Source: Leucoraja erinacea (Eukaryota). From it: DNA of 64,000 nt. This document shows, piece after piece, positions 2,443 to 61,791 of the stretch. A program made the translations under genes and the position numbers. The stretch covers positions 24,180,001-24,244,000 of the forward strand of contig NC_073377.1 of assembly GCF_028641065.1 (NCBI RefSeq), read 5' to 3'. The notes under the pieces were generated by a model. The model worked only from the letters and a program-made list of their open reading frames with translations, had not been told where the DNA came from and did no database searches. The stretch's first letter is position 1; each line of letters opens with the position of its first letter.

Positions 2443-2479
2443 TAGTGAGACTGTCTGGGTGCAATTTTTTCCGTCACCT

Positions 2480-3885: not shown

Positions 3886-4627
3886 AGCTGTTTAATCTTC
3901 CTACCGCAACCAGAGAGCAGTGCTGAATTACTATCTACCTCTTTGATCTTAGTTCAGCACTGCTCTCTGGTAGTGATGGGACCCACTGAGTTACTCTCGC
4001 ATTTGTGTCTTTTCTTCAGGGATGTTGCCTGACCCGTTGATTTGCTCCAGCACTTTGTGTCTTTTTTTCTGTAAACCAGCATCTGCAGTTCTTTGTTTCA
4101 ACAAGTCCTTTTATTTACTAGTTGATATATTGGGGTAGATGCAGTAAGATCTCTTAATGCATCTGGGCATCTAAAATATATTTGATGTGCTTACTGGAGC
4201 AAGGGAAGATATCAGTTTTAGACAAATTCCTGTAATGGTTCTATACGTACAGAACACCAATTTTCAGTAGTTAACAGTACAAACATTGCAGAGACCGGAG
4301 TGCAACAGGTTAATTCATAAATATAAAATCTACAGTAGAATATCCTTCAGACTAATTTATTGTTGAGGTCAAATGCGACACCAAAGCTATTCCGAAAATT
4401 ACAATCACCTGTACATATCAAGACAAGGAGGCCCGATGATGACAAGTTACTTTCCAGTAGCTTAAAGAATTCTTGAAGTATACACAAGCAGAAGCAGAGA
4501 TATAGCTGATAAAAATCATCACTGAAATTGTGTGGTCATATGATCTCTTGAGAATTTCCAAATGCTTAATTTTATGCAAGTGATAGAGAACATGACATTT
4601 ATTTTGCTGTGCTCAAGCAAGCAGACA

Positions 4628-4759
4628 TTATGGTTTGCAACGTTGAACAAAACGTGGGTACAAACATACATCCCGAATATGGTGTCTGTTCAGAAGCCAT
4701 GTTAAGAAACGTTCCAGTCCCAAGCCATATCCGCCATGTGGACAACTGCCATATTTACA
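4628..4759 (-). CDS. NARS1: NARS1 last coding exon ([43 protein letters not shown])
   Basis: ttccttccag acceptor; motif 3; TAA stop at 4630-4628. Candidate AATAAA signals on the minus strand at about 4598, 4356 and 4110. Confidence 0.96.
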
Positions 4760-10700: not shown

Positions 10701-13700
10701 CGATTACAGCCTCACGTCTTCTTGGATATGACGCTACAAGCTTGGCACACCTGTATTTGGGTAATTTCTCCCATTCTTCTCTGCAGATCCTCTCAAGCTC
10801 TGTCAGGTTGGATGGGGAGCCTTGATGCACAGCTATTTCCAGAGATGTTCAATCGGGTTCAAGTCTGGTCTCTGGCTGGGCCACTCAAGGACATTCACAG
10901 ATTTGTCATGAAGCCACTTCTGAGTTGTCTTGGCTGTGCTTAGTGTCATTGTCCTGTTGGAAGGTGAACCTCTGCCCCAGTCTGAGGTCCAGAATGCTCT
11001 GGAGCAGGTTTTCAACAAGGATCTCTCTGTACTTTGCTCCGTTCATCTTTCCCTCGATCCCGACTAGTCTCCCAGTTCCTGTCGCTGAAAAACATCCCCA
11101 CAGCATGCTTCACCTTGGTATTGGCCTGGTTTCCTCCAGACGTGACGCTTGCCATTCAGGCCAAAGTGTTCAATCTTGGTTTCATCAGACCAGAGAATCT
11201 TGTTTCTCATGCCTTTTGGCAAACTCCAAGCGGGCTGTCATGTGCTTTTTACTGAGGGGTGGCTTCCGTCTGGCCACTTTACCATAAAGGCCTCATTGGT
11301 GGAGTGCTGCAGCTATTGTTGTCCTTCTGAAAGGTTCTCCCATCTCCACAGAGGAACTCTGGAGCTCGGTCAGTGACGATCGGGTTTTTGGTCACCTCCC
11401 TGACCATAGCCCTTCTCCCGATTGCTCAGTTTGGCCGGGTGGCCAGGTCTATGATAAGTCCTGGTGGATTCAAAGTTCTTCCATTTAAGAATAACGGAGG
11501 TCATTGTGCTCTTCGGGATCTGCAATGCTGCAGAAATTGTTTTATACCCTTCCACAGATCTGCACAATCCTGTCTCGGAGGTCTACGGACAATTCCTTCG
11601 TCTTCATGGCTTGATTTTTGCCGACATTCACTGTCAACTGTGGGACATAGAAACATCGAATATAGGTGCAGTAGTAGGCCATTCGGCCCTTCGAGCCTGC
11701 ACCGCCATTCAATATGATCGTGGCTGCTCATCCAACTCAGTATCCTGTACCTGCCTTCTCTCCATACCTCCCCGATCCCTTTAGCCACAAGGGCCACATC
11801 TAACTTCCTCTTAAATATAGCCAATGAACTGGCCTCAACTACTTTCTGTGGCAGAGAATTCCACAGATTCATCACTCTGTGTGAAAAATGTTTTTCTCGG
11901 TCCTAAAAGACTTCCCCCTTATCCTTAAACTCCTTGTTCTGGACCTTATATAGACAGGTGTGTGCCTTTTTAAATCATGTCCAATCAATTTAATTTACCA
12001 CTGGTGGACTCCAAGCAAGTTGTAGAAACATCTCAAGGATAATCAATGGAGACAGGATGAACCTCAGTTCAATTTTGAGTGTCATAGCAAACCTATGTAA
12101 ATGTGATATTTCAGTTATTTATTTTCAATTACATTGCAAACATTTCTAAACACCTGTTTTCGCTTCTTCATTCTGGAGTATTGTGTGTAGATTGATGATA
12201 TATAAAAAAAGAATTTAATCCATTTTAAAATAAAGCTGTAACGTAATAAAAAGGTGGAAAAAGTGAAGGGGTCTGAATACTTTCTGAATGCACTGTATTG
12301 TCTGTGTTAGGCAGGTTACTGGAGAGTATTCTAAGGGATAAGATATATATGCATTTGGATAGAGAGGGGCTGATTAGGTATATTCAGCAGAATTTTATAT
12401 GTGGGTGATCTTGTCTCACTAATCAGATTGAGTTTTTTGAAGAAGTAACTAAAAAGGTTGATGAGGGCAAAGCCATAGATGTTGTCAATATGGACTTCAG
12501 CAAGTCATTTGATAAGGCTCCACATGGTTGCTCTCAAAGGTTGGATCATATGGAATCTTGGGAGAGCTACCCGACTGAATAGGGAATAGGCTTCAAGAAA
12601 GAAAGCAGAGGATGATGGTGGAAGGTTGTTTATCGGATTGGAAACCACTGACTTGTGGTGTGCCTCAGGGCTGGGACCTGCTGTTTGTGGTTTATACCAA
12701 CGATTTGGATGAGAATGTACAAGGCATGATTAGTAAGATTGCTGATGACACTAAAGTAGTTGGCATCATAGATGCCAAGATGGCGACGCTGCCTTAGCAG
12801 CTGCTGCTTGCCTGCAGTCTGTCTGTTTTTTCTCTTATTTGTTGTTGTTCTTTTGTCCTGTTTTAGTTAATCTTTGGTTTATTAGGTTGTGTATGTGTGT
12901 GGGTGGGGGGGGGGGGGGGGGGGGGGAGGGGAGAAACATGTTTTTGGTCTCTTCCTTCGGGCGGATGCGACTTTTCTTGTCGTATCCCCCGTCTCCGTCT
13001 CCGTCGAGGTCTAATGGCGGAGCTGGCGGCCTTGGGGCTGTGGCAGCGGGGACTCGATTTCGGAGCTATGGCGGCGTTCCGACGACTCGACCAGAGCTGT
13101 GGCAGCTTTCCGCCGTTTCCACTTCGGAGCTGGGGCGGCGTTCCGGCGTTGGCGACCAGACTTCGGAGACTCGGCCGCGGGCCCAGTGGACGACATAGTC
13201 GGGAGCTCGCAGGTCACAGGTTGGTGACCTGTTTTTCCGGAGCTCCCGCAACAACAGCTTCGTCCGCTGGACTGAAGGGCAGCAGCTTCGACCACCCCGG
13301 GCCGCTGAGTTTAATTCAATTCAGATAATAATGAAAAATTGCAGCAGGATCGTGATCAGTTGGGCTGTGGAATGGTTCATGGGAGTTTAATAAAGAAAAG
13401 TGCAAGATGTTGCATTTTGCAAAGTCAAACCAGGGCAGGACCTTCACAGTGAATGGCAGGGCTCCGGGGAATGCCGTAAAGCAGAGGGATTTAGAAGTGC
13501 AGGGAGTTCCTTGAAAGTCGCATTGCAAGAAAGCTTTCGTCAGTCAGAATCTTTAACAGAAGTTGGTATGTTACATTAAGACATTGGTGATGTTACATTT
13601 AGAGTATTGTGTTTAGTTTTGGTCATCTTGTTATAGGAAAGATGTTGCTAAGTTGGAAAGGGTGCAGAGAGGAATTTACGAGGATGTTGCCAGGATTCAG

Positions 13701-16700
13701 GGGCCTTAGCAATAGGGAGAGGTTGAGCAGGCTAAGACTTTTTTTCCTTGGAGCGCAGGAGAATGAGAGGTAATCTTAACGAGGTGTATAAAATCATGAG
13801 AGGGATAGGGTAAAAGCCTTTTACCCAGAGTAAGTAAATCAAGACCTGGAGGACATAGGTTTTCAGGTGAGAGGTGAAAGATTTAATAGCAACTGGAAGG
13901 GCACCATTTTCATGCAATGGGTGGTGGGTACATGGAATGAGCTGCCAGAGGAGGTAGTTGAGGCAGGTATCACAAAATTTCAAAAACATTTGGACAGGTG
14001 CATGGATAGGAAAAGTGAGGGAGATATAGGCTAACTGCAGGCAGGTGGGACTAGTGTAGATGGGCATCTTAATCGGCGTGGGCAAGTTGGGTAGAAGGAA
14101 CTGTTTCCATGCTATATGACTATGAATAGATGGATGAATGTACAAGATGAAGTTACCTTTATGTAAACAAACACAAATAGGATTCAGTAGAAACAAGGAA
14201 TTGCAGATTCCTCACAGGCTTACAGAAGACACAAAGTACTAGTAATGCAGTGGGTCAGGCAGCATCTCTGGAGAACATGGATATGTGACGTTTCGGGTCG
14301 GGACTATTCATCAGACTGATTGTAGGGTTTGGAGGGATGTGGAAGAAAGATGGGGGGGAGAGAGAGACGCAAGACAAAGTGTGGCAGGTAATAGATGAAC
14401 ACAAGCAAGGACGATTTTTGATAAGCAGACAGTTGGAACAAAGGCCATAAATTAAAACAGAAGGTGTGAAACAAAAGGATTGAGGAGTTGCGAATTGTGA
14501 AGCCAGAGGAAGGAATGTGGGTGGAGGGGCTTATGAGATAATGAAAAGAGGTAGTATACATTAATTTTGGAGAAGTAACTTCATGTAGCTGTTAATATAA
14601 AACTCCCGTTGAAGTGCTCAGGGTACATGTTACACAAAATACCACACACAGTCACTTACCGGGTGCAGGTCACGCACAAGCTCACCATAAGGTGACTTGA
14701 GGATGCGGTCAACCACATCACAAACAAGGTATTCCAAACGGTCGAGAAGCTCGTCAAAAGTAATGAATGGACATTCTGCCTCAACATGAGTGTATCTGAA
14801 ATATTTAACAGAAAATTAAGACCACTAAAGTTTTCCTGACAGCATAAAGTGTTTTTAATCAGAGAGAATACTGCAAGTACTCAGCAGGGAAGACGGTATC
14901 TATGCAGACAGAAACAATTAATACTTTGACTTCATATCCACAAAGGTTCCTTGGTGCAACACTAAACCATAAAAGTTATGGCATGAGTTCAAGGGGTCTT
15001 TGTGGCATCATCTCACATTTAACAGAGTATCACAAAAGAATAAACATTTAGTCGCATCTCCAATGTTATTGCTATACCTTCAAAGCGTTAGGTAATTGTG
15101 CTTAATTGTAATTCTTTTCATGTTGCTCTGCACTGCTGGATACTATGTATATTATATAACATTGTTGTATACGAACTGGTGGGAACTATACTAACCAAAT
15201 AGGAGTTGGGACAGACAAATGGAGATTAATTCAGACAAGTGTGAGGTATTTCTGGCAGGTCAAATTTAAAGGGAGAGTATATTGTTAATAGTAATACGGT
15301 TAGGAACATTAATGTATTGGGGATCTTGGGGTACAAGTCCATAGCTCCCAGAAAGTGGCAACAATAGTGCATAGGATGGTAAAGAAGGCACACGGCTTGC
15401 TTATCTTCATCGATCCAGGGTGTTGAGTATACAATTTGGGAAGTCATGTTGCAACTGTATAAAACTATGGCGAGGCAACATTTGGAGTATTGTATGCTGT
15501 TTTGGTCACTACTTTACAGGAAAGGTGGAGATTTTGGAGTGTAGAAGAGTTTTGTAAGAATGTTTCCTGGATTAGAGAATATATTAATTATAAGGAGAGA
15601 TTGGACAAACTTTGATTGTATTCTATCAGAGGCTGAGATCTGATACAACCACATTCGGAGGCAGTTTTCCAAATTCAAGGACAGTTTCTTCCCAGCTGTA
15701 AACATGCAACTAGTGAGCGGTCCTGAACTATCGGACCATCTTTGATCGGACTTCACTGGCTTTACCTTGCACTAAACGTTATTCCCTTATCATGTATTTG
15801 TACATTGCAAATGGCTCGATTGTCATCATGTATTGTCTTTCCGCTGGCTGGTTAGCATGGAACAAAAGTGTTTCACTGTACCTCGGTACACGTGACAATA
15901 AATGAAACTGAACTGAACATAACATACAATTCTGAGAGAGATCGATGGAAATGATAAGTCAGTCTTTTTCCTTGGGTGAAAATTTCAAACACTAGGGGGC
16001 ATAGTTTTAGCATGAGAAGGGATCGTTTAATGGAAATTAGAGGCAACTTTAAAAGAAAACTCAAGAGTGATTGGTACCTGAAATGAACTACCAGGGGAAG
16101 TGGTGGAAGTATTTACAATAGCAACATTTAAGAGACATTTACACAGGCAGGGAATGGAGGAATACAAATGACTGCCAGTATATGTTCAATTTAATTTGGC
16201 ATAATGGTTGGCACAAATGGTTGGTTCAATGGCCTGTTCCAGTGCTGACCGTTGTATGTTCTTAATATTTTATAGTCTAATCACAAATTCAGTATCAAAG
16301 GTTACACAGAAAAGCTGGAGAAATCAGCGGGTGCAGCAGAGCTATGGAGCGAAGGAAATAGGCAACGTTTCGGGCCGAAAAATTCTTCAGACGAAGGGTC
16401 TGAAGAAGGGTTTCGGCCCGAAACGTTGCCTATTTCCTTCGCTCCATAGATGCTGCTGCACCCGCTGAGTTTCTCCAGCTTTTCTGTGTAACCTTCGATT
16501 CTCCAGCATCTGCAGTTCCCTCTTTAACACAAATTCAGTATCAGTTTCTTAAAGAGCTGTTACATAAAAATGTTAAGTGGCAAAGTAATTTTCATCTTGA
16601 GTTAAAGCATTTCGGACTAATATGGACACCGCTGGTCTAAAAATTACCGTAATTATTTTTCATTTATAGATGCAGCAACAAGCAGAAATACTTAAAGTAT

Positions 16701-19700
16701 CAGTTTCCAATTCCAAACCAAAATGTGTTCACATAAGTCTCAATTAGGTTTTATATCCCAATCTTAGTTTGTCCCCGATAATATTAGAGCACAAAGAAAT
16801 AAAACACCAACTCTGCCAGGTGTCTGCGAGTCCGGGACTGCTCCGCACGATAGGACTGTGCCACGCAGAAAACATCCCCAAGGCAAGGGACACAGGTCTC
16901 CAGGTATAACTGAGAAGACTGGGTCAAGAAGGCCTCTTCACCAAAATAGTTCAGCTTGAATAGCGTTGATCCTCCCTCAACCTGTGTCTGAACCAATGTG
17001 GGCGGAGTGATCTGAAAAATAAATATAATTAGTATACAAGGGTGGGGGAAAACAGTTACTCCCCCCCCCCCCATACAAAAAAAAACTGCTCACTGTAACT
17101 AATCACATCAGTTTCAAGTTATAAAATGTGATCACAAATTCAGCAAATGTAAATGGGTCTGATAGCACGAAGTTTCATTGGAGCTCTGTAATAATGCTAG
17201 ATGAAAAGAGCACTATTTGTGCAGGCAATGAGATGCAAATTTTTGACCCACACTTTGTTAACAGAGAGAACCATTAACGTGTATTTTGTACATTAGGTGA
17301 ACAGATGCATGGCATTTCTAACATACGGGTTGCACTTTCCCCCTTGTGGCCCATGGAAGAATAGCCCGTATCTCCTTCACATGGTGAAAAGAGGAAAAAA
17401 TACACAATATTTAACAGTTAAAGAAAATAACCATAAAAATACACAAAAAACATTCAAAAATCAAATTAGCATTAAAATACACAAAGAAAACTCTCAAAAA
17501 TTGTTCAAATTTGAAAAAACGTTCTCAAAATAACCCAAGATTCTTACTGTTCTATGCATTATAAGCTTTGAATAATTTTCGATTGTATTTAAATTTGGCA
17601 TTTTCTGGTAGTTTTGCCACAATGAACAAAATACAAACTATTCTAACATTTTCTGAACAAACCCCACACAATGATATGTTCTGCTTTCAATAGTTACTTC
17701 ATATTGAACTCTTCATGATCAAAGAGCATGGGGAGGGGGGGGGGGTCAGTTCCATAAAGCAGTAACACAAGTGGTACCCACATATTTTGGGTTCTCAATG
17801 AATGACTACGTTCAGTATTACACACTTATTTATAGCCACTTCAAATACAGCACTGAAGAAATAAGAAACATACTTCATAGTAGCAATTGTCAAAGAAGTG
17901 GTCCCTAAAGCACTGCACCAGAGCGGAGCGCACTTTGAAGATCTTGGTCATGTTTTCGCCACGTAGCATCATGTGACGGTTGTTGAGCTGGACATCAACG
18001 TCAGATTCTTCATTAAGCAGGTTATCTGCACCTCCAGCTGGAGCCAAACCAATCAGTTCCCAGTAATCACAAATCAATTCATGCCCTCCGGGAGCCTGGA
18101 ACATAAGCAAAGCAGCACACTTCAAGCTGGACTAGGAGTGCCATTCTGTACATTTCCCCCCCCCAACAAAGCTATCGGTTTCAATTCACACTGGGGCAAT
18201 GGTGAGGCGAGGGGGGAGAGGAAGAACAAGAGAGAGGAACAAAGAGAGAAAATGCGGGACAAAGTAAAAAAGAGAGTAAAAGATAGAGAAAAGGAGGGAG
18301 GCTAATTAGAGAGGTGAGGGAGAGAGGGGAAAGAGCAAAGGGAAAAAAAAAGAGGAAAAAGGGAGGAGGAAAAGCCAGAGGTGCTATTCTTGATTTTTTT
18401 TGTCTTTAAACTCTTTCACCCTTTTAAAATTCCCAGCTTCTCTACTTCTTTTAAAATTTGATAGCACTCCTTAAAAAAAAACATCTACCAAACCTTTGCC
18501 AAACATCACTAATATCTCCAAATATGGTGTGCTTTTCAAATTTTGTTCAACTACTAATCAATGAACTGTTTCAATTGCTTTTATTGTGATGCATTGTTAC
18601 TATTTCTGCAAACATTTTCACTAATTATGTCCACTGTGAATGCTGACCAAAAAAAATCAACAATTTGCCTTATTTTTATGTTCACCTTCAATTGGACCTC
18701 TATCTGCTTATAAAGGGTCATTAAATTAAAAGGTGCCAAAGGTCACTTTAAACAATCTGATCATTTAAGACTCTTGTGTTAATTTTCCCGTAGCCTTTCT
18801 GCAAATTTTACCCGTTGTTATTTTGCATCTTTTATTTTTGTTGTTCTTCTTGATATATGGATTTATCATGTACACTTTTGTGTGGTCTGTTGTACAGCTT
18901 TATATGATCTTTAAGAGTCTGAAGCAAAAATATTACAAATATGTTTATATATTTATAAAAACATGTACAATTTATTAATAAGATAAATATAATATAATTA
19001 ATAAATATTTATAAAAATGTCTACCATTTTGCCCTCCGGCACAACTTGCAGTTTTCCATAAACTGCAATGGAGCTCTCTGTTGATAGGAGTAATCCATTG
19101 TAGCATTGACACTGAAGAAGAAAACATGTTAGAGCACATACATTACGTTTACAGAGAAATTATAATTTCTTCACATTGAAGTTTTTGAAATTGGAAATTA
19201 TTCAACATTCATTGTCAACTTAAAAATGATTTTGACTGGAACAGAGCAAAAGGCAGCAACATTAAGAATCAGAATTAATAATGGCATCTTCACATTTTAA
19301 CGATGAAATGAAGAACATTTAACAAATGTATTTGATTGTTTCGGAAAAAATGATTACCAGGTCATCACTGAGGATACATTGCAGAAATCCCGTTCCATCA
19401 CGTAAAACAACGAACATTAAGTTCTTTCCTGTTAAGATAAATATTTTAATTTTAAATGAATTGATATTAGCGAATGCTGTCCCGCTCACTTCCTTCTTAC
19501 TTTATAAAGAAAATTAAATAACTGAACTGACTCGCAGCATTTGATAAGGTCCCACATAGGAGATTAGTGGGCAATATTATGGCACATGATATTGGGGGTA
19601 GAATGCTGACATGGATAGAAAATTGGTTGGCAGACAGGAAACAAAGAGTAGGGATTAACGGGTCCCTGGCAGGCAGTAACTAGTGGGGTACCGCAAGGCT

Positions 19701-34700: not shown

Positions 34701-36759
34701 ACCACCCCCTCCCCGGGCACTTTCCCTTGCAACCGCAAGAGATGCAACACTTGTCCCTTTACCTCCCCCTTCGACTCCGTTCAAGGACCCAAGCAATCGT
34801 TCCAGGTGCGACAGAGGTTTACCTGCATCTCCTCCAACCTCATCTATTGCATCCGCTGCTCTAGATGTCAGCAGATCTATATTGGTGAGACCAAGCGGAG
34901 GTTGGGCGATCGTTTCGCCGAACACCTCCGCTCGGTCCGCAATAACCAAGCTGACCTCCCGGTGGCTCAGCACTTCCTGCATTTTTCCTGCATTTAGCCT
35001 GTCCAATCCTTTAAGAATTGTATATGTTTCTGTAAGATTCCCTCTCATCCTTCTAAATTCCAGTGAATACAAGCCCAGTCAAGCAATCCCAGGAATTAAC
35101 CTGGTGAACCTATGCTGCACTCCCTCAATAGCAATAATGCTGAACTCCCTCAATAGGGTGATTTCACCAAAGGTCAAATGAGCGTAGATCCCCCCTCACG
35201 TGACCGAAAATTTTAACTGGAGGACATCTCTCAGTTTGGTACATGTAAGTGAATGGGGAAACACGCACTTTCCCACCCGTTAAAAACATGGAAAACGGCC
35301 GATTTTTGAGCTGAAATTTTCTGTGGTAGTTGGGGCGACCGTGAAGCACAGCGACCTAAATTTTCAGGCAAAAAAAAAGATAGAAAGTGAGGTAATTACA
35401 AGAGGGAACTGAAGGTAGAAAGCGGCAGAAGTGAACAGCTGACAATTGCCGTGGTGATTTTAAGATCCAAAATATCGGGAATTATCACGTTTGCTCGCTG
35501 AATTTCATCAAAAGTAAGGCATTATTAACTTACTTTTGATGAAATTCAGCGAGCAAACGCGATAATTCCCGATATTTTGGATCTTAAAATCACCACGGCA
35601 ATTGTCAGCTGCTCACTTCCGCCGCTTTCTACCTTCAGTTCCCTCTTGTAATTACCTTACTTTCTATCTTTTTTTTTGCCTGAAAATTTAGGTCGCTGTG
35701 CTTCACGGTCACCCCGACTAGCACAGAAAATTTCAGCTCAAAAATCGGCCGTTTTCCATGTTTTTAACGGGTGGGAAAGTGCGTGTTTCCCCATTCACTT
35801 ACATGTACCAAACTGAGAGATGTCCAGTTAAAATTTTCGGTCACGTGAGTGGGGATCTACGCTCATTTGACCTTTGGTGAAATCACCCTATAGCAGTAAC
35901 GCCCTTCCTCAAATTAGGAGACCAAAATTGCACACAATACTCCCGGTGCGGTCTCACCAAGGACCTGTAAACTGCAGTAGGAGCTCCTTGCTCCTAAATT
36001 CAAATCCTCTGGCAATTAAGGCCAATATGCCATTGGCTTTCTTCACTGCCTGCTGTACATGCATGTTTAAAGCCCTGTCCCAGAATGAACCCGTACCGTG
36101 GGACAGGGCTATTACTTTCAGTGATTGATGTACAAGCATGCACAGGTCAGTTGCATCTCCCCTTTTCCTAATCTGACACAATTCAGATAATAATCTGCTT
36201 TCCCGTTCTTGCCACCAAAGTGGGTAAACTCACATTCATCCACATTATACTGCATCTGCCCACTCCCCCAAAAAGGTCTGAAGGGTCTTGACACGAAATT
36301 CCTGCCTGTCCCGCTGAATTGCTCCAGCATTTTGTGTCTAAATGCAATGGGAGTTAGCCGGTGGCCGGTGCCCAACACGAACTAGATCAACCCGCTTGGG
36401 CGCGCCGTCTTTTTACCACCCCGGGGGGCAAGAGGAAGGGAAACCAGCGCGGAAGGTGACCGGCAGCGGGTCGCCCACCCAGGCGGGGCCGGGGCCGGGG
36501 TAGGAGCCGGGGCCGCCTGTGAAAGGCGACAGTCCAGTCCCGTCCCCCCCCCCCGTCATCACCAGAGAGGGGTAGACGAGCCAAACTCGCAGGCCGGCGA
36601 TCCAGCTGCTCCCCGCTGATCGCAGAGCCGCATCGCATCGCATCGCCGGCCCGGCCCCGCCCCGCCCGGTGTCCCGGCGCCACCGGTGCCTGGCGCAGGG
36701 TAACCGGCCTCACCTAACGACAGCTTCGCCGTCTCCTCACACACGTCTCCGGCAGACAT
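4628..36759 (-). CDS. NARS1: Cytoplasmic asparaginyl-tRNA synthetase, complete 15-exon CDS (1683 nt, 560 aa + stop)
   Basis: Exons join in frame through GT..AG introns: 36759-36714, 31910-31828, 31736-31671, 30033-29941, 25864-25775, 23206-23128, 19428-19358, 19111-19025, 18095-17874, 17011-16812, 14795-14660, 9976-9863, 9119-8988, 7052-6921, 4759-4628. Class IIb motifs present: OB-fold [23 protein letters not shown], motif 2 [24 protein letters not shown], motif 3 [12 protein letters not shown]. Confidence 0.97.
5380..5704 (-). mobile_element. tRNA-derived V-domain SINE (HE1-like) with CR1-type tail
   Basis: GGGGCGACACGGTGGCACAG A-box head, GGTTTCCTCC..ACTCCAAAGACGT V-domain, (CTAAA)n-like tail. 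Related fragments at 57351-57780 and 60945-61061. Confidence 0.8.
6921..7052 (-). CDS. NARS1: NARS1 exon 14 ([17 protein letters not shown]...YYWYTDQ)
   Basis: ORF 6867..7052; rare GAG acceptor (tttgtgag), gtaagt donor, 132 nt. Confidence 0.94.
8538..8800 (+). mobile_element. Penelope-like element 3' end with pLTR
   Basis: [26 protein letters not shown] followed by a pLTR with degenerate hammerhead motif. Confidence 0.8.
8988..9119 (-). CDS. NARS1: NARS1 exon 13 ([12 protein letters not shown]...[15 protein letters not shown])
   Basis: ORF 8955..9182; gcacag acceptor, gtaaaa donor. Confidence 0.96.
9863..9976 (-). CDS. NARS1: NARS1 exon 12 ([18 protein letters not shown]...FYEFGE)
   Basis: ORF 9815..10000; atcag acceptor, gtattt donor. 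Confidence 0.96.
10449..12295 (-). mobile_element. Tc1-family IR/DR DNA transposon with decayed DD34E transposase
   Basis: TA|CAGTG...CACTG|TA ends; long inverted ends with internal DR AAGTATTCAGACCC; fragments [44 protein letters not shown]. Confidence 0.93.
11647..11944 (-). mobile_element. CR1 LINE 3' fragment nested in the Tc1
   Basis: Minus-strand CR1 tail ([25 protein letters not shown] + TTTCTATG-type end); Tc1 sequence rejoins as GGAC|CTTATATAGACAGG. Confidence 0.85.
12774..13322 (+). mobile_element. CpG-rich non-coding retroposon inside a CR1
   Basis: Starts GCCAAGATGGCG (YY1-like), poly-G, CpG-rich body, ATTCA-repeat tail. Confidence 0.55.
14660..14795 (-). CDS. NARS1: NARS1 exon 11 ([45 protein letters not shown])
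   Basis: tttcag acceptor, gtaagt donor, 136 nt. Confidence 0.96.
16298..16527. mobile_element. Inverted pair of Penelope pLTRs with 16-bp TSD
   Basis: About 95-bp inverted arms 16298-16495; TSD CACAAATTCAGTATCA at 16282-16297 and 16528-16543. Confidence 0.85.
16400..16427 (+). ncRNA. Minimal type I hammerhead ribozyme motif (PLE-associated)
   Basis: CUGAAGA-A-GGGU-UUCG-GCCC-GAAACGUU; short helix I GGU/GCC. Confidence 0.65.
16812..17011 (-). CDS. NARS1: NARS1 exon 10 ([14 protein letters not shown]...[14 protein letters not shown])
   Basis: ORF 16784..17074; tttcag acceptor, gttggt donor (phase 2). Confidence 0.96.
17874..18095 (-). CDS. NARS1: NARS1 exon 9 ([16 protein letters not shown]...[12 protein letters not shown])
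   Basis: ORF 17841..18125; ttccag acceptor, gtatgt donor, 222 nt. Confidence 0.97.
19025..19111 (-). CDS. NARS1: NARS1 exon 8 ([29 protein letters not shown])
   Basis: cttcag acceptor, gtagac donor, 87 nt. Confidence 0.95.
19358..19428 (-). CDS. NARS1: NARS1 exon 7 ([23 protein letters not shown])
   Basis: ttaacag acceptor, gtaatc donor. Confidence 0.96.
19538..22980 (+). mobile_element. Cluster of CR1 LINE fragments in NARS1 intron 6
   Basis: Copies at about 19538-20566, 20800-21570 and 21990-22980 with RT and 3' motifs. Confidence 0.85.
23128..23206 (-). CDS. NARS1: NARS1 exon 6 ([27 protein letters not shown])
   Basis: ttcatag acceptor, gtgagt donor, start of anticodon-binding OB fold. 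Confidence 0.96.
24872..25735. mobile_element. Non-autonomous TIR DNA transposon with 7-bp TSD
   Basis: TAGCAATGTTACAAAA...TTTTGTAACATACCTA flanked by CATCATG on both sides. Confidence 0.8.
25775..25864 (-). CDS. NARS1: NARS1 exon 5 ([30 protein letters not shown])
   Basis: aacag acceptor, gtaatt donor, 90 nt. Confidence 0.95.
26364..27903 (+). mobile_element. Young 5'-truncated CR1 LINE (RT plus 3' tail)
   Basis: [47 protein letters not shown]; few frameshifts. Confidence 0.93.
28750..29436. mobile_element. PIF/Harbinger MITE
   Basis: TTA|AGGGCCTGTCCCGCTTAGGCGA...TCGCCTAAGTGGGACAGGCCCT|TTA. Confidence 0.85.
29941..30033 (-). CDS. NARS1: NARS1 exon 4 ([31 protein letters not shown])
   Basis: tttcag acceptor, gtaaac donor, 93 nt. 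Confidence 0.95.
30470..30591 (+). mobile_element. Helitron 3' end fragment with (GT)n
   Basis: GGACCCAACGGGTCC hairpin then CTTGGTCTAG|T; same end as 48886. Confidence 0.65.
31671..31736 (-). CDS. NARS1: NARS1 exon 3 ([22 protein letters not shown])
   Basis: atag acceptor, gtaaat donor, 66 nt in frame. Confidence 0.95.
31828..31910 (-). CDS. NARS1: NARS1 exon 2 ([27 protein letters not shown])
   Basis: ttcacag acceptor, gtaaga donor, matches vertebrate NARS1 N-terminal domain. Confidence 0.95.
32300..33167 (+). mobile_element. CpG-rich non-coding retroposon in NARS1 intron 1
   Basis: (GT)n and poly-G blocks, CpG-rich body, ATGACAATTAAA + (TTGTA)n tail. Confidence 0.55.
33921..34452. mobile_element. 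PIF/Harbinger MITE
   Basis: TTA|TGCCCCTGTCCCATTTAGGAAA...TTTCCTAAGTGGGACAGGGGCG|TTA; interior related to 28750-29436. Confidence 0.85.
34500..34975 (+). mobile_element. Penelope-like element GIY-YIG endonuclease fragment
   Basis: [37 protein letters not shown]. Confidence 0.9.
35155..35889. mobile_element. Near-perfect palindromic MITE (about 365-bp arms), AT target duplication (ISL2EU/Harbinger-like)
   Basis: AGGGTGATTTCACC...GGTGAAATCACCCT; arms pair to a roughly 10-nt loop near 35520; inserted in a CR1 as ccctcaAT|..|ATagcag. Confidence 0.85.
36070..36111. mobile_element. 42-bp minimal Harbinger-type element inside a CR1
   Basis: TTA|AAGCCCTGTCCCA..TGGGACAGGGCTA|TTA; the CR1 rejoins across it. 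Confidence 0.75.
36714..36759 (-). CDS. NARS1: NARS1 coding exon 1 ([16 protein letters not shown])
   Basis: ACAATGT Kozak context inside the CpG island; G|GTGAG donor; phase 1 matches exon 2. Confidence 0.88.
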
Positions 36760-36804
36760 TGTCCGTGCCCGAGGCTCAGCGGCGGCTGCAGTTGATGTGA
36801 CGGT

Positions 36805-36821
36805 CAAAGATCCTATAGCAG
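36805..36821. mobile_element. 17-bp transposon-end remnant with 8-bp TSD in the NARS1 5' UTR/promoter
   Basis: GTGACGGT|CAAAGATCCTATAGCAG|GTGACGGT. Confidence 0.7.
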
Positions 36822-37098
36822 GTGACGGTGACGGCGGCGGCGGCCGTTTATCAATGAGGAGGCGCGAGGAGGAGGAGACCGTTGGGGGGGGGGCGGGGCT
36901 TGTGGGCCGGAACGTCATTGACCACCACCCAGAGCCGCTCTCTGATTGGACGAGCGGCAGCGTGGCGGACAAGAGCAGCTCGCGCCTGCGCACAAGGGAG
37001 CTAGTTGCTGCCGGTTGCATCAGTCGGAGGCGGAGAGGGGGAGGGGGAGGGCGTACCCCCTTGCTCCCAGCCAACATCACAAAATGCACCATTTGGTG

Positions 37099-37122
37099 CA
37101 AAGATCCTATAGCAGATCTTTG
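37099..37122. mobile_element. 24-bp fused transposon-end remnant with 8-bp TSD
   Basis: ATTTGGTG|CAAAGATCCTATAGCAGATCTTTG|ATTTGATG. Confidence 0.7.
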
Positions 37123-37204
37123 ATTTGATGTTTGTTGAAACTGAAAGAAACCACTGCCGGGAAACAGCAATGTGAAAGAGAAATGAAACTGAAATAGAGT
37201 TCAG

Positions 37205-37815
37205 AGATAGTGTCAAGAGTGTTTTATTATTATATTAATTTTCACTTGCACTAGGAAGCTTTTAGTTGCTGTAGTTCATGGGCTCATTAAATGCATCAAC
37301 ACAACGAATAAATACGCCATTTATTAGTCATGATTGTAAACCAACCCTGATTGTACAAATCGAAATACACAGTGTAACCGTAGAAGTGCAAAGTTCATCA
37401 TAGTTTGGTGCCAAGGTAGGGTTATGGTTGATGGTGCAGAGAGATGCAAGAGCCTGATGGTTGCTGCAGAGAAGCTGTTCCTGAACCTGATGCTCATGGT
37501 TCTCAAGCTCTGTCTGATACCTTCCTGGTGGGGGCAATGAGATGAGAGCATGGCCAGGATAGTGTGGCCTATGATTGAGATTAGCTGCCCTCTTGAGGGT
37601 GTGCTTCTGTACCCTTGATGGACACGACAACATCCACCACCATCTGCATGCTCTTCTCCAGTCTTGAGCATTCACAGTACTAAACCAGGCTGTGATGCAA
37701 TCAGTCAGTATCTTTGGTCATTATGCTCTCCATCATACACCTACGGAAGTTCAACAGAGTAGCGACACGTGACATCTCCTCAAACTTCAGAGAAAGTAGA
37801 GTAGGATTTCTGAGC
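37205..37815 (-). mobile_element. Decayed Rex1/Babar LINE 3' fragment upstream of the NARS1 promoter
   Basis: RRCMMESIMT, RQSLRTMSIRFRNSF motifs. Confidence 0.65.
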
Positions 37816-38454
37816 CCAAGACAGATCATGGCTCGAGGGGCCGAATAGCCTACTCCTGCACCTATTGTGTATTGCTTATCATCAGAGATATGCAATTCAT
37901 AAATTCTTCAAATCTACGTAGCCTGGGAGAATGTGCAACCCCACACAGACAGAATTAATATGTCAGGACTGAAACCGGGTCTCTGGAGCCATGAAGCAAA
38001 CTTCACCACTGTGCCAACCGAATTGCACTAATTATTGCACTAATGGAGTGTGACCTGATAACTCAGAAACACTGTCTCAGGAGATGAAGGGAAGCACACC
38101 TTTTACCACCTTAACCGCATGTATTGCAGCTTTGTATTTCCAATCCCAGATTCCTCTGTACTTTATGCTCCAATAAGCGAGTTCGGTATTCCGACTGCGC
38201 ATGCCCGGGTCATAGGTCACTGGCTATAAAACAGTCTTGGCAATGGTGATGCTGCACTGTGTGCCGGCTTGCATTCCGTCCATGGTCAAGTTCAGCTCTC
38301 CGTCACTGCGGGTGCTGTTGGTCTGTCCCCTCCCCGATGTCCTGTCCCTGTCTGGAGGTGTCCGGGGTGGCTCAGGGCTGGCGGGGTGGCCCTGGACTTG
38401 CAGCCGCTGGACTCTGCCTGTGGTCGGCAGCCCACCACCTCCACCCCCCTCCCC

Positions 38455-39130
38455 TCAGCCTGACACTGAGATCCTGCTGAAGATGGGCAGCCACTGGGTT
38501 GCGGGTACTGTTGGTGATGGTGGTGCTGGCGGCAGCAGCAACCTCCTCCCCACTCCCTTGCCCAGCCCCAAGCCCAGAGTCTGGGCCACCTCCAACTCCA
38601 GGATGCGGCTGAAGGTCGCCTGCAGAGTGGCACAGTCTAGCGCCGGGCCGGAGGAGGCTGAGGCCAGGCTGACGCTCTGGTGAGGCCGGGGCCCTCGCTC
38701 CTCCTTGGGGTTGTGTATGAAGTGGCAGCGGGTACCGTAGGGGCAGAAGCCAGTGGTGTGCAAGGTACGGCTTGTACTTTGCACACCACCGGCTTCTGCC
38801 CCAACGGTACCCGCTGCCACTTCATCCACAACCCCGAGGAGGAACCGCTATCCCAGGTACGACTTGTACTTGAGGCCGTGGGCGAATTGGCACTTGTAGT
38901 TGGAGCGGGATTGGGCTGAAGTTGGGCTGGCTGTGGGTTCTGTGGGTCTGTAGCCGCTGGTGCTGTTGGTTGGTCCGGTGGGAGAGGCGGAGATGAGGCG
39001 GAGGTGAGCTGGGGTTTGCGCTTCTCCGCTGTGGGCCTCAGGACCGGTGTCCCGTCCGGATGGGGATGGGACACTCGAATGGGGGGGGGGACGACCGGGG
39101 ACGCTCCAGTGGTGGTTCGGCAGCACTTGC
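38455..39130 (-). pseudogene. ZFP36/tristetraprolin-family (tandem CCCH) pseudogene fragment, rearranged
   Basis: KCQFAHG (end of finger 1), [21 protein letters not shown] (finger 2), and C-terminal [10 protein letters not shown] resembling the TTP-family NOT1-binding motif. Linker deleted, frame broken, internal inverted duplication. Confidence 0.8.
38701..38841. repeat. 68-bp inverted repeat (5-nt loop) formed by a duplicated CCCH finger
   Basis: 38701-38768 versus the reverse complement of 38774-38841: 5 mismatches counted by eye. Confidence 0.9.
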
Positions 39131-40129
39131 GGTCTACCCCCCCGCCCCCCCCCCGCAACTTTGGAGTAGTGTATTCCAAGAATTGAGTATCCAGATCTGC
39201 CCTATTTTGGTCCATCTTTTTCTTCATAACTGAAATAATCCCAATGACTTATTTTGCAGCCCACTAAACTGACACGTAATGGAATGCCTCATATGTTGAA
39301 TCACTCTTTTTGGGTAGAAGCATTCCATTAGATTTCAGTATTTAAGTAATCCAGTCCAATTGGAAAGTATCAAAGGTGACTGATGGGTGAAAACTACATA
39401 GGGGTTTACCATAATCTCTCCCTTTTTGCCTCTTTTCTCATGTGGGATTGTAGCTGGAACATACTCGCCGATAATCACCCATTGCTCCGTTGCAGTTTAA
39501 TATTTGGTTGTACTTTATCCTGACACACATTCCATCACATACCACTAATCGGAAACTTTCTCCATTTTAGAAAATCTAATCCAGTAATGGAAACAGTAAA
39601 GGGAAAAAGAAAAAAAGAAAAATCTAACCCAAACCTGAAGATCCCTATCACTCAAATCTTCTCCCACTGTTGATCGATTTGATTCACCCTCGTTCCCCAA
39701 ACCGCCGTGGCAATTGGCTCCTTAATTTTTCCAAAAACATACAGGTCCAGAAATTCATGTCCCTTGTCCTTCAATATTACCCTCATCAATATTGGCCAAT
39801 TAAAAGCACCCTAAAAAACAATGTACAGTTTTTGCACATTTACATAATTTCTTAAGTCTTTATGTCTCGCACACACATCAGGTTTTTTTGGAATACTCAG
39901 TCTCCAAACTGCGTCTGACGCCCAAGGCCCATTCTATCAACAACCTAACACCCACTTTTTTGTTTAAACTTTGTAGTCTTCTATTCAAGAATGAGGATTC
40001 CAGAACTGCTCTCTTTTGGTCCATATTTTTCCCCATAACTGTGAAATGATCCCTTATGACACATTTTGCAACACACAAAACCTACATACCACACTTCCTC
40101 AAACTGATATCATCTTTTCATATTTACAA

Positions 40130-41615
40130 AGGGGAAATCATGCTTGACTAATCTTCTGGAATTTTTTGAGAATGTAACTAGGAAAATGGACAATGGAGAG
40201 CCAGTGGATGTAGTGTGCCTGGACTTTCAGAAAGCCTTTGATAAGGTCCCAGATAATTCAATTCAATTCAATTCAACTTTAATGTCATCGCACAAATACA
40301 AGTATGAGTACAACGAAATGCAGTTTTGCATCAGTCCGTAGTAGTTGTGCATAAAGAAATAATTTAAAAAAAATAGAAAGAGAAAAGATACAGAATAATA
40401 AAAAAAACAGAATAATTAAACAATGGGGATGGAGGGACTGGAGAAATCTATCCGCGGGACTCCGAGTTCAGCAATGTGATGGTATTATTGTAGAAGCTGT
40501 TCCTCATCCTACTAGTACGTGACCTGAGGCTCCTGTACCGCCTCCCTGATGGGAGGAGGGCAAACAGTCCATGGTTGGGGTTAGTGGGCAAAATTAGAGC
40601 ACATGGTATTGGGGGTAGGGTACTGACATGGATAGAAAATTGGTTGGCAGACGGGAAACAAAGAATAGGATCCCTTTCAGAATGGCAGGCAGTGACTAGT
40701 GGGGTACCGCAAGGCTTGGTGCTGGGACCGCAGCTATTTACAATATACATTGATGATTTAGAGGAGGGGATTAGGGGTAATTAGCAAATTTGCAGATGAC
40801 ACAAAGCTGGGTCAGTGTGAACTGTGAGGAGGATGCTATGGGGATGCAGAGTGACTTGGACAAGGTGAGTGGGCAGATGCATGGCAGATGCAGTTTAATG
40901 TGGACACATGTGAGGTTATCCACCTTGGTGGCAAAAAAAGGAAGGCAGATTACTATCTGAATGGTGTCATGTCAGGAAAAGGGGAAGTACAACGAGATGT
41001 GGGTATCCTAGTTCATCAGTCACAGAAGGTAAGCATGCAGGTACAGCAGGCAGTGAAGAAAGCTAATGGCTCTTCGCTCCACAGATGCTGTGGCACCCAC
41101 TGAGTTTCTCCAGCATTTTTGTGTACCTAAAGCTAATGGCATGTTGGCCTTCATAACAAGAAGAGTTGAGTATAGGAGCAAAGAGATCCTTGTGCAGTTG
41201 TACAAGGCTCTAGTGAGACCACACCTGGAGTATTTGTGTGCAGTTTTGGTCACCAAATCTGAAGAAGGACATTCTTGCTATTGAGGGAGTGGCGGGACAG
41301 TCATATGTTGAAAGAATGAAGCAACTGGGCTTGTATACACTGGAATTTAGAAGGATGAGGGGATTTTATTGAAACATAAGATTATTAAGGGATTGGACAC
41401 TAGAGGCAGGAAACATGTTCCCAATGTTGGGGGATCCCAGAACCAGGGGCCAGTTTAGGAATAAAGACTAGGAGATGAGGAAAAACGTTTTCACCCAGAG
41501 AGTTGTGAATCTGTGAAATTCTCTGCCTCAGAAGGCAGTGGAGGCCAATTCTCTGGATGCTTTCAAGAGAGAGTTAGATAGAGCTCTTAAAGATAGCAGA
41601 ATCAAGGGATATGGG
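40130..41615 (+). mobile_element. CR1 LINE interrupted by a minus-strand Rex 3' end (about 40253-40580) and a pLTR fragment
   Basis: [10 protein letters not shown] | [12 protein letters not shown]; [19 protein letters not shown] on the opposite strand. Confidence 0.85.
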
Positions 41616-42199
41616 TTCATTAAGTCTGCTTCTACACAATACTTGCTTCTATCCAATCACCGTTTTCTTTTTTTATTTACTGCTGTATTCCAATACTTCT
41701 CTCTATTAATTTAGTTTAAAGTTGTCCATGAATCACAGCTGAGATGTAACTCACCCATCAACAAGGATAGTTTCTTCCCAGGTGATATCAGGCAACAGAA
41801 CTGTCCTTTCACCAACTGGTGTACGATTCCAACCTCATTGGATACTCTTAAAGGAATTTATCTTGCAATAAATGTTATACCCTCTATCCGATATCTGTGT
41901 ACTGTGGACGGCTTGTTTGTAATCTTGTACAGTCTTATCATTAACTGGATAGCACACAGCAAAAAGCTTTTCACTGTACCTCAGTACATGTGACAATAAT
42001 AAACTAAACTCACTGTTCAAGGTAAAAGGTGCGTGGGTGTTAAGGTTTCAAGGTTAGTTTATTGTCACATATACCAGTTAAGGTACAGTGAAATTTGAGT
42101 TACCGTACAGCCATACTAAGTGAAAAACTCCAAGACACACACCCACATAGAAGTTAACATAAATGTCCATCACAGTTGATTCCACATTCCAATTGTTCA

Positions 42200-43300
42200 A
42201 TTGCAGGAGGAGGCTACTAAAAGGGACAAAGAACGAAGGAGACAACTTGGATGTGTACTGGATTGTATGACTGGACTCTGGACCACTCCAGCAGGGCAAA
42301 CATGCATTACAGATTCTTTGGCAGTATGGGTTACAGAATGTATGCACAATGCAACCCATTGTGGTGCGAGGGCAGTAGGAGACTCTTTTGGCTAATTGGT
42401 AGCATCCAAGATTACAAACTTTAGCTCAGAAGGTAAGCAATAGTCGCCTGGTCTGCCAGAAATACAATCCAGGGAAAGGAATAGGATGCGAAGAGGGAAA
42501 AACACCATTGCCTATGGGCCCGTTCGAGACACTGACACTTCTATATTGAATTAGAAAGGTGAGAGGGTTATAAGTATGTACTTGTCATAGTCGATGTATT
42601 CAGCCGGTGGATCGAAGCTTATTCAACCCTTGATAATAAAGCGGCTACTGTTGTCAAGGTGTTAATGAGAGAAATTATCCCTAGATTTGGCATCCCTATT
42701 CAACTTAGTTCAGATAACAGTCCACACTTTATTGGACAAATCAATAAATAATTTTATGAACAGCTGGGGATCCGGCAGCAATTGCACTGTGCTTATCGAC
42801 CACAGGCTGCTGGACTTGTAGAATCAGACCCTTAAAACTAAATTAGCTAAATTAAACGCAGAGACTGGACTTGGTTGGATTAAATTACTCCCCATAGCTT
42901 TATCTCAGATGAGAGTCACGCCTGTAGGGAAATCTAGACAGCCCAACTGAAATTGTTTATGATAAACCCTGAAGAACACATTGGAATCAGAATGCAATGA
43001 AAATAATTAACTTCTATCATAGGACTGCGGAGATGACCAACTACATTCTAGCTTTGACCAGAGCATAGAGGGACTCACACTGTAGAGTAAAAGCAGTCTC
43101 TAGTTGGATGCCTTTGTTAGCAGCTTCAACTAAAGTTAAACCTGGAGACCATGTCCTTATAAAGAACTGGGTAAGGAAAGGATTAGAGGTTCACTGGGAA
43201 GGACCTTACCGGTTCTCCTAACGACCACAACAGCATTGAAAGTTAACAGGAGGAATGCGAGGGTACATCTTCATCACTGTAAGAGTATCATTGGAAATAG
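42200..43300 (+). mobile_element. Endogenous retrovirus pol integrase relic (class I/epsilon-like)
   Basis: HNATHCG zinc-binding start, YKYVLVIVDVFSRWIEAY, IIPRFGIPIQLSSDN, HCAYRPQAAGLVE, WEGPY.VLLTTTTALKV (GPY/F); stops and frameshifts. Confidence 0.85.
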
Positions 43301-45931
43301 GGACTAGCTTACTTCATTCCAGGTTCTCTGAGAAACTTCATATTCTAAGATTGTTAAGGGCTTGGACACACTCGAGGCAGGAAACACGTTCCCGATTTGG
43401 GGGGAATCCAGAACCAGGGGCCACAGTTTAAGAGTAAGGAGTAAGCCATTTAGAACGGAAACGAGGAAACACTTTTTCTCAGAGAGTGGTGAGTTTGTGG
43501 AATTCTCTGCCTCAGAGGGCGGTGGAAGCAGGTTCTCTGGGTGCTTTCAAGAGAGAGCTAGAAAGGGCTCTTAAAAACAGCAGAGTCAGGAGATATGGGG
43601 AGAAGGCAGGAATGGGGTACTGATTGGGGATGATCAGCCATGATCATTAGAGTGAGTTGTTGGAGGTTAAATATTAATCATCCATTTTTAAATGAAGTTG
43701 ATTAGAATGTGTGAGAGTACAAAGTTGTACAGTTGGAAAGCAAAGGAGAGGGGAAGGGAATGAATGAAATCGTAGAAGCATATTGCTGTAAGCTACAAAC
43801 CAAAGTTTATGTAAAGTTTTCCTCCTATTTATTCCTCCAGTAATTACCTCCAATTGTAGACATTACTAGAAACATAGAAAAATAGGTGCAGGAGTTGGCC
43901 ATTCGGTCCTTTGAGCCAGCACCGCCATTCAATATGATTATGGCTGATCATCTAAAATTATTACCCTGTTCCTGCTTTCCCCCCCATATCCCTTGATTCC
44001 TTTAGCCCAAAGAGCTAAATCTAACTCTCTCTTGAAAACCCCTACCTTGCCAGCTTGTGTAGCTATTTTCACCTTTTTTTCCCTTTTCATATTATTCTTA
44101 GATTACTTTGGTCCTCAGCCCTTTTTAGGAAAGCGATTAAACAGAAACTAAATTTAAACTGATATGTGCACTCACTTCAGCCTCAATTTGACATGCAATG
44201 CCGAGGGTTCCCTAACCTACATCCTTTCCACTACAGGAATTTAATGTTGAAAGAGTGCATCGTTTTTCAGATGAATTCGTATCCCCCCCTTCCAAAACGA
44301 CAAGAGTTTTATTTAAACCCGCTCCTGCTCCATTGCCGTAGGTGAAGAGCACTGAAATCTAAAGTTGTGTGAACCGAGTGTCACGCACAAGAGAAGCAGC
44401 TGCTAGGAAACTCTAAGGATAAGAAATACGCTAATTTGTGTTGATTGATAGTTTTCCTTATTAGCTTTGAAAATGGAGACAGTAAATTTGAACCCAAGAA
44501 TTTCCATCATATGTAACAGAATTAAACATTGAATTGTCTGACTAGAGTCATAAAGTCACACCGCATGGAAACAGGCCCTTCGACCTAACTTGCCCATGCA
44601 GGTCAAGATGCACCAGTCCAGAACCAGGGTCCACAGCTTAAGAATAAGGGGCAAGCCATTTAGAACGGAGACAAGGAAACACTTTTTCACACAGAGAGTT
44701 GTGAGTCTGTGGAATTCCCTGCCAGGGCATATGGGGAGAAGGCAGGAATGGGGTACTGATTGGGGATGATCAGCCATGATCACATTGAATGGCAGTGCTG
44801 GCTCGAATGGCACCTATTCTGCACCTATTGTCTTGTCTACACTAGCCCCACCTGACCACATTTGCCCATATGCCTCCAACCCTTTCCTATCCACGTGCCT
44901 ATCCAGATGCCTTTTGACTAACCAAAACATTTTCACACAGAGGAACCAAAGTTCCTATAATCTTTTTGGCTCTGCCTTTAAAAAATAAAAAAAATGAACA
45001 AAAAAACAACCAATTCTTAAATTCTATTGTTGCCAATGCCAAGCCAGTTTCCAAATGATTTGGTAATCTTGCGGTTTTCCTTGGGAGTGAAGACCAGTGA
45101 TAACAACAGGTGTTAAAGGCTAATGGTATGAATTTGAGATTTTTAGAATCCCGTCATGAATTTGTGGTTCAACAAAATATGTTGAAATAATTAAACAAAA
45201 ATAACTGAATCTTACATGTTTAATTATCCTTATTTAGTACAGAAAATAATCCTGAAAATATACAAGCATATTATCTAACGCTTCAAGGCAAATAATAGTT
45301 TAAAAATGAAGAACATTTATGCTAAATATTTAATTATCTTTGAAAAAAAGTTAAGCTCAGAAAATAAAAATGGCAGTGCAGATTTTAAATGTTACTTCAC
45401 ATCTGGATTTCAGAGTTTGAATAATGGAAATATAGAATTCCATTTTTAATAAAATTCTATCATATTTGGTAAGGCATTAAAGGTGAAACATTTGGTAATT
45501 CACAAATGCTAATAAAATTGAGCAAAGAACATAAATCTACATAAATGTTAACATGAAAAACACCAGTTGCTCAGGTAGTTTCTGCAAATCAATAAAACAA
45601 AATTCTGCTCTTTTTTGTATTATTCACAACAGTCTCATAAATGAAAATTCATAAAATGTTGCCACGTAGCAACAGGAGATTAATGCTTGGAAAACAGATA
45701 ATCTCTTCTTTACATTTTAAATATATTAGTTGGCCCCTGCAGAATAGATTTCCTTGTCTTTCTTTTGTGCAAATTGGAAGGATTGCAGATCTCACAACAT
45801 GGAAAGTCATACAGTATATTGAACGTGTTGGAAACTTCCTCCACTTGATCCTGAGATTTAAAAAAAAGTTTTCCTCTCTGTAATTTTTTTTTTCAATAAA
45901 AAATGTCAAGAAGTCAAATGGAGTGATGTCT

Positions 45932-61791
<15,860 letters not shown>

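Follow-up and report, generated by a model that had tools for sequence, protein, structure and literature searches.

A probably neutral fold-back hairpin in a decayed copy of a dispersed ZFP36-carrying repeat from the little skate

The ZFP36-like locus described here, located in a window of 64 kb (the whole stretch of Leucoraja erinacea DNA that was analysed), is one copy of a multi-copy repeat and not a lone pseudogene. Its hairpin probably represents a neutral, one-off fold-back in a dead copy of a many-copy, likely Helitron-like repeat carrying the 3' half of a skate ZFP36 gene. By itself the hairpin is of little importance, resembling a common kind of rearrangement in dead repeat DNA; of greater interest is the repeat family that carries the gene fragment. 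The element is organised as follows (window coordinates).

38172..39135, minus strand: one decayed copy of the dispersed repeat with its ZFP36 fragment; the 3' boundary is sharp and the 5' one approximate (poly-C tract)
38172..38207, minus strand: family terminus, composed of a 12-nt near-palindrome, a 17-nt stem-loop and a 7-8-nt tail ending in CTTAT, then T
38227..38454, minus strand: post-stop sequence, also present in gene model P0018; element body or diverged 3' UTR
38455..38900, minus strand: captured 3' half of a skate ZFP36/TTP-type gene, which begins at the end of finger 1 and continues to its stop (homology search, tree)
38900..39135, minus strand: non-ZFP36 part of the element, with weak likeness to the N-terminal part of gene model P0023

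Four of 24 listed sequencing runs were aligned to positions 38030-39330 at 85% likeness: DNA contigs from three organisms (X1, X2 and X9) and oligo-dT RNA (X24). The repeat gathered 2,696 (X1), 2,758 (X2) and 1,807 (X9) contigs. The right flank was covered by one contig per run, with depths of 17 (X1), 10 (X2) and 8 (X9), single-copy level being found beyond ~39170. At 38171-38173, 236 (X1), 282 (X2) and 188 (X9) contigs left the repeat to enter unrelated AT-rich flanks, where agreement amounted to 0.33-0.40. Summed depth varied ~1,000-fold along the element. Divided by flank depth, it reached ~6,400-7,300 at 38207 (terminus), ~380-540 at 38459 (ZFP36 C-terminus), 90-240 at 38716, 5,800-17,400 at 38752 and 5-29 at 38952, ratios that are not copy numbers, since overlapping contigs inflate them and the 85% cut-off deflates them. 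These ratios would correspond to a minimum of hundreds of termini, with tens to hundreds of copies, or possibly more, that carry ZFP36. A depth spike was also recorded at 38734-38777 (71,000-101,000 vs 1,300-4,800 in neighbouring bins), with a threefold spread among the organisms after scaling; it may correspond to a very high-copy or tandem subfamily containing ~35 nt of finger 2.

Relatives devoid of the ZFP36 part were revealed by joints from 38223 to 39096 and from 38386 to 38994 (a single contig for each, in X1 as in X2), which tie the 38900-39135 segment to the terminus in other copies. Non-ZFP36 sequence flanks the captured fragment on both sides. No homology was detected between the left and right flanks of the repeat copy. 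On either side of the ZFP36 fragment, a 30-nt direct similarity (38299-38328 vs 38947-38976, 77%, E 0.028) was observed, which may be an internal element repeat or the capture site. In X1 as well as in X2, single contigs carried opposite-strand joints (38740 to 38809 and 38404 to 38839); inversions may also exist in further copies of the family.

The ZFP36 frame was translated through its stop as X before the homologue search, which returned 39 homologues among 6,269 candidates, the best being a Rhinoraja ZFP36-family protein (P0002) and its near-twin (P0003). A tree of 17 rows built from the fingers onward placed the window copy with these two (support 98/97), within the chondrichthyan TTP-type group, the L1/L2-type proteins lying outside it; owing to the long branch of the window copy and to one frameshifted row, its deeper nodes are unsure. 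The parent paralogue is of ZFP36/TTP type. Like the chondrichthyan ZFP36/TTP-type gene (P0002 from Rhinoraja, P0003), the window copy displays finger 2, a downstream Gly/His-rich tract and the C-terminal motif, but it lacks the N-terminal half and most of finger 1. It is further distinguished from that gene by the deleted first Cys of finger 2, a stop and a frameshift; in total, the 38455-38900 fragment carries several deletions, one frameshift and one stop. Two intact C-x8-C-x5-C-x3-H fingers are absent from it. The earlier note had described the locus as a ZFP36/TTP pseudogene: its TTP-type origin (from the homologues and the tree) and the broken state of the gene are upheld, its solitary nature is not, given the multi-copy repeat.

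Two other broken ZFP36 copies were encountered among Leucoraja gene models (P0018 and P0023), located on different large contigs. P0018 aligned with the window sequence past the stop (45% identity over 64 aa, E 4e-10), and the N-terminal part of P0023 displayed weak likeness to 38900-39135 (11/14 aa, E 7e-4; also E 1.6e-6). All three copies read KYKS where intact chondrichthyan proteins read KYKT, which points to a single capture followed by copying, and their ZFP36 homology starts near the same point of finger 1. The captured fragment presumably falls inside one exon of ZFP36-family genes. The pair P0018 (ZFP36-like) and P0023 (ZFP36L3-like) are likely repeat copies rather than genes. Used as a query, the P0018 tail matched P0018 itself solely, among 184 candidates; P0023 retrieved 69 proteins, namely P0023, P0018 and ZFP36-family or unnamed CCCH proteins, without any further named skate copy. 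An upstream frame of 71 aa gave three matches among 1.84 billion representatives, all of them long repeat proteins, and was rejected as spurious.

As for the class of the repeat, the near-palindrome of the terminus at 38196-38207 is self-complementary at 10 of 12 positions given the family majority letter at 38207, the 17-nt stem-loop occupies 38180-38196, and T comes next after CTTAT in 188/236 (X1), 225/282 (X2) and 163/188 (X9) contigs. From its sequence, the repeat may tentatively be regarded as a non-autonomous rolling-circle (Helitron-like) transposon, a class that is unproven because no CTRR was found and no 5' end located. The terminus resembles the 3' hairpin of canonical Helitrons (HLE1), as described in the available parts of PMC4067079 and PMC11417382: a hairpin of 16-20 nt is expected ~11 nt from the 3' end, and the 17-nt stem-loop lies 7-8 nt from it. 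The 3' CTRR is absent, the end reading CTTA followed by T, or CTTAT followed by T. With respect to HINE/Helentron elements (HLE2), the distance of the 3' stem-loop from the end sits at the lower limit of the 8-35 nt published, and no subTIR partner of 38195-38206 was found at up to 2 mismatches within 35001-48000, in a copy that is possibly truncated. Since one defining feature was missing for each, the element was filed in neither HLE1 nor HLE2. A 5' TC end was not found for the window copy, and no autonomous partner of the repeat was seen. The terminus pattern had no match in metagenome contigs or in viral contigs and a single one in the window, which is the terminus itself; Rfam likewise gave no match in the window.

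Among known systems, those available parts of PMC4067079 and PMC11417382 describe the non-autonomous Helentrons HINE and DINE-1 (HLE2), which have, like the skate repeat, a 3' stem-loop close to the end. Both also display a near-palindromic 12-mer behind the stem-loop, a T after the end, gene-fragment cargo and no poly(A). Yet the near-palindrome lies 24-35 nt from the end in the skate repeat vs 38-60 in HINE and DINE-1, and the partner 5' subTIR is lacking in the former. In addition, HELIANO has just HLE1 in chondrichthyans: as far as its table S10 is available, four chondrichthyan rows contain HLE1 only and no HLE2, and 11,154 HLE1 are recorded for Leucoraja erinacea. No published name of a skate Helitron family was found in the literature search. 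In Xenopus laevis, 19 captured coding fragments were reported in 64 Helitron insertions (PMC12001565, available part). There, Heli1Xen1 carries a host coding fragment that is copied along inside a dispersed non-coding element, as is the case in the skate repeat. The Heli1Xen1 cargo consists mostly of 5' fragments bounded by TC and CTAG ends, and no gene exceeds 17 copies (same source), whereas the skate repeat carries a 3' fragment in apparently tens to hundreds of copies or more, without CTRR and with an unlocated 5' end.

Two other classes have to be weighed against a Helitron-like transposon. The family could be a LINE-mobilised retro-element, i.e. an amplified retrocopy or a SINE-like chimera of ZFP36 mRNA, of which the terminal stem-loop would be the reverse-transcriptase recognition signal and the copies would be 5'-truncated. 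Such an origin would suit a sharp 3' end without a sharp 5' end (among the ends listed) and a cargo made of the 3' half of ZFP36, and LINEs dominate skate repeats according to the available part of PMC10115646. It is nonetheless improbable: poly(A) and tandem tails are absent from the flank consensus at the 38171-38173 terminus (with its low agreement, as given above), the sense strand of 38100-38455 contains no AATAAA and no ATTTA past the stop, non-ZFP36 sequence borders the fragment on both sides, and the window copy, P0018 and P0023 all gain ZFP36 homology near one point of finger 1. A poly(A) tail or signal, as in processed pseudogenes, was not found at the 3' end either. Alternatively, the family could belong to a different kind of DNA transposon or to the tyrosine-recombinase elements, or be a satellite in part, with an end that resembles Helitrons by coincidence. 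This is unlikely but deserves consideration in view of the CTRR and partner subTIR that were not found, of a W-S-W preference in the flanks beside the repeat end, and of the 38734-38777 depth spike with its threefold difference between organisms, which tandem amplification could produce. Against it, three features of the terminus fit the HINE ends published in PMC4067079 (available part): a stem-loop placed 7-8 nt before the end, the near-palindrome behind it and the T that follows the end.

The window copy lies between two genes, of which the nearer is represented by the following feature.

36714..36759, minus strand: likely first coding exon of NARS1 (presumed exon 1), in a CpG island with a CpG o/e of 0.89; outside the element

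An exon of NARS1 was recognised at 16790-17089 (E 7e-38 to human AsnRS) and its likely ATG is at 36759, 1.9 kb from the hairpin, in agreement with the earlier placement of the hairpin about 2 kb upstream of NARS1. On the other side, exons of a phospholipid-translocating P-type ATPase were noticed at ~45935-46170, 51320-51664 and 59798-60187 (minus strand); this gene ends ~7 kb from the element, has the orientation of NARS1 and is, judging by sequence and synteny, probably ATP8B1. A stretch that resembles, by eye, a broken retroviral integrase remnant lies between the ATPase gene and the ZFP36 repeat (~42300-43300). The right flank contains a 79% direct duplication (39157-39269 / 39967-40081) that resembles, by eye, L1-type ORF2 remnants; two right-flank frames had no Pfam match. 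An assembly gap of 143 nt (49144-49286) lies within a G-rich tract.

Long hairpins are common in this region, four others with arms of 39-297 nt being found within the 64-kb window. The largest is a fold-back element of ~730 nt in intron 1 of NARS1 (35149-35881), with 297-nt arms (98%), a 10-nt loop and outer repeats that extend further. It is apparently TA-flanked and MITE-like, has a shorter relative at 50391-50511, and could give a double-stranded RNA far longer than the ZFP36 hairpin, inside the NARS1 transcription unit. Additional hairpin-forming short repeats, belonging to one family, were observed at 6578-6703, 16342-16449 and 57383-57713.

The ZFP36 hairpin itself is composed of the following parts.

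38699..38768, minus strand: hairpin arm 1, the finger 2 copy at its original place, without the first Cys; its private substitutions number three (two CpG-type)
38774..38843, plus strand: hairpin arm 2, the duplicated finger 2 in inverted orientation; its single private substitution is at 38803
38763..38779, unstranded: direct-repeat copy 2 (D2), containing a 6-nt quasi-palindrome with a 5-nt spacer at the hairpin tip; likely fold-back primer
38844..38854, unstranded: filler of 11 nt marking the return junction; X2 contig 16 reads across it
38855..38871, unstranded: direct-repeat copy 1 (D1), from repeat comparison

In a self-comparison of the sequence, the arms formed an inverted repeat of 70 nt, 93% complementary, around a 5-nt loop, with five mismatched pairs (38706/38836, 38716/38826, 38739/38803, 38752/38790 and 38764/38778). 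The hairpin, its loop and its five mismatches are thus as described in the earlier note, which had given a stem of 68 bp where 70 nt are now measured. The direct repeat said to bracket the inverted copy was recovered as well, as a 17-mer of which 16 positions are identical in D1 and D2. A Pfam search of the hairpin region matched zf-CCCH (PF00642) on both strands (E 4e-6 and 2.7e-5), so that finger 2 is indeed present on both; it is not complete, each arm encoding just the last three zinc ligands, and the deletion that removed the first Cys is common to both direct-repeat copies. Folding was proposed as a check and set the region far apart from shuffled sequence: 38681-38890 reached -164.1 kcal/mol (z -16.3), equalled by none of 200 shuffles. 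The fold was very stable on either strand (-140.5 and -136.9 kcal/mol), and a perfect run of 22 bp persists within the stem. Read on the minus strand, the order is upstream sequence, D1, inverted X with the 11-nt filler, D2, X and the remaining gene.

The inversion truly exists and is confined to this locus, since other copies run un-inverted past 38779 (21 contigs in X1 and 10 in X9) and the outer junction is carried by a single-copy contig. The latter, X2 contig 16, covers 38816-39330 at depth 10 and crosses the outer junction, reading 39 letters into the inverted part. Among the sequencing records listed, none spans the loop or the whole stretch, the outer junction is seen in neither X1 nor X9, and X2 might be the same sample as the assembly source, points on which an assembly artefact could be argued. 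The concern was already raised in the earlier note and has now been confronted with reads: a short-read contig of single-copy depth across the outer junction, together with arms whose 5 differences show CpG-type decay, in contrast to the palindrome of a chimeric read, makes an artefact extremely improbable.

The hairpin is probably a neutral fold-back duplication in one repeat copy. The template-switch origin suggested previously gains support, in the form of a local template switch or fold-back, from a seed palindrome situated exactly at the hairpin tip. This 6-nt quasi-palindrome (5-nt spacer; 5/6 pairs, one of them G-T) arose when two GTAC motifs were moved close to each other by the deletion in D. 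Most simply, fold-back priming at the tip would have been followed by 64-nt self-copying, an 11-nt filler and a second copying of D. In this scenario, the ZFP36 fragment would have been captured and spread before the three organisms (X1, X2 and X9) split, after which the window copy would have inserted between ATP8B1 and NARS1 and decayed. A deletion of ~11 nt would then have taken the first Cys of finger 2 and set the two GTAC motifs 5 nt apart. A nascent or broken strand ending at 38779 would have folded back onto 38763-38768, copied itself over 64 nt, gained 11 nt and rejoined before the 17-mer, giving D-inv(X)-D-X. Neutral decay would have followed, with 5 differences over 81 duplicated positions. 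A convincing local template for the filler was not found, the one match, with 2 mismatches, being at 39043. Twin-priming inversion of a retrocopy was ruled out, both sides of the inverted piece keeping sense orientation.

Short template-switch mutations, as treated by the four-point model in the available part of PMC5453318, have in common with the window hairpin an adjacent reverse-complement copy and a short inverted-repeat seed. They differ from it in that the window direct repeat needs point 4 before point 1, which is nearer to fold-back break repair. In the human-chimp data of Loytynoja and Goldman (PMC5453318, same part), a return point upstream of the exit point, the order that yields a direct repeat, was not observed, and neither were intra-strand switches. 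Break repair or a single-stranded intermediate is therefore more likely than a plain fork switch. Compared with the family majority, arm 1 carries three private changes and arm 2 one, two of the four being CpG-type; D1 and D2 differ at one site. No compensatory change between the arms was found among these 4 substitutions polarised against the family, a small number. Along the element, 11 of 30 private changes are CpG-type, these 30 being taken from 40 listed rows with most X1 depth on another letter, non-CpG 38276 left out.

The earlier note had proposed that the locus provides a hairpin RNA able to target the whole ARE-decay family. In such a reading, the locus would be transcribed, for instance in divergent orientation from the CpG-island promoter of NARS1 or through read-through of ATP8B1, and its hairpin diced into endo-siRNAs regulating ZFP36-family mRNAs. 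The RNA results, which cover ~5% of run X24 (one oligo-dT library, unstranded-looking, tissue of origin unspecified), did not bear this out. All 296 aligned reads matched in part only, none fitting the stretch end to end, and none fell on the unique right flank (39174-39330). The left flank (38030-38161) also had zero depth, which is not counted against transcription since the DNA runs displayed the same. The locus letter was carried by 0/15 reads at 38716, 0/18 at 38589, 0/25 at 38543 and 0/5 at 38803, and finger reads bore the letters of other copies or of the parent. Rare locus reads are possible, since 2/16 and 2/26 reads were without the other letter at CpG sites 38706 and 38752, respectively, and 8 of the 296 were at least 99% alike over their aligned part. 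The ZFP36-region reads likely derive from the parent gene, as the non-locus letter at 38543 occurred in 25/25 RNA reads vs 169/6,653 of X1 DNA depth and RNA reads had extra letters at 38549-38552. Separately, poly(A) RNA contained the family terminus (38172-38220) at a depth of ~136-fold, and 120 reads continued into unrelated flanks: many copies lie within other transcripts.

This RNA result lowers the siRNA reading without closing it, and we consider it very improbable. The stability of the fold with its 22-bp perfect run, the CpG-island promoter 1.9 kb away and the fact that arm 2 differs from the RNA reads at one site among the rows listed would all suit it, and there is precedent in pseudogene hairpin siRNAs (PMC3616710, available part). 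Indeed, psiPPM1K is likewise an inverted duplication in a gene copy, with a Dicer-sized stem possible; yet psiPPM1K and the mouse oocyte loci are transcribed and their small RNAs were sequenced (same source), whereas no transcript of the window hairpin was seen in the X24 sample. Besides the read evidence, the arms without any compensatory change and the four other fold-back hairpins inside the same 64 kb speak against the siRNA reading. Targeting of the whole family by putative siRNAs is unlikely, as finger 2 of the L1/L2-type proteins retrieved differs from that of the skate TTP type at 3 of ~22 residues, before synonymous changes.

Helitron capture of coding fragments is already known in vertebrates, from Xenopus laevis (PMC12001565, available part). 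What appears undescribed is a regulatory-gene fragment amplified by a vertebrate transposon at a scale above the Xenopus reports. No report of a ZFP36-carrying skate repeat was found in the literature, including the available part of the little skate genome paper (PMC10115646); repeat databases and supplements may name it otherwise. The family is the likely source of spurious 'ZFP36-like' models in the annotation of skates, such as P0018 and P0023, and ZFP36 read counts and copy calls in skates are open to contamination by it. It also allows a direct test, in a vertebrate germline, of whether transposon-directed small RNAs spill onto a captured donor gene, as reported for transposon siRNAs in maize (bioRxiv 10.1101/777037, available part). 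In a quite improbable version, a transposon would have spread hundreds to thousands of copies of the ZFP36/TTP finger and C-terminal tail, germline piRNAs or siRNAs would also hit the real ZFP36 mRNA, and self-folding copies such as the window hairpin would be ready double-stranded triggers. If true, spill-over on ZFP36 would constitute a vertebrate case of the captured-gene silencing conflict of the maize type.
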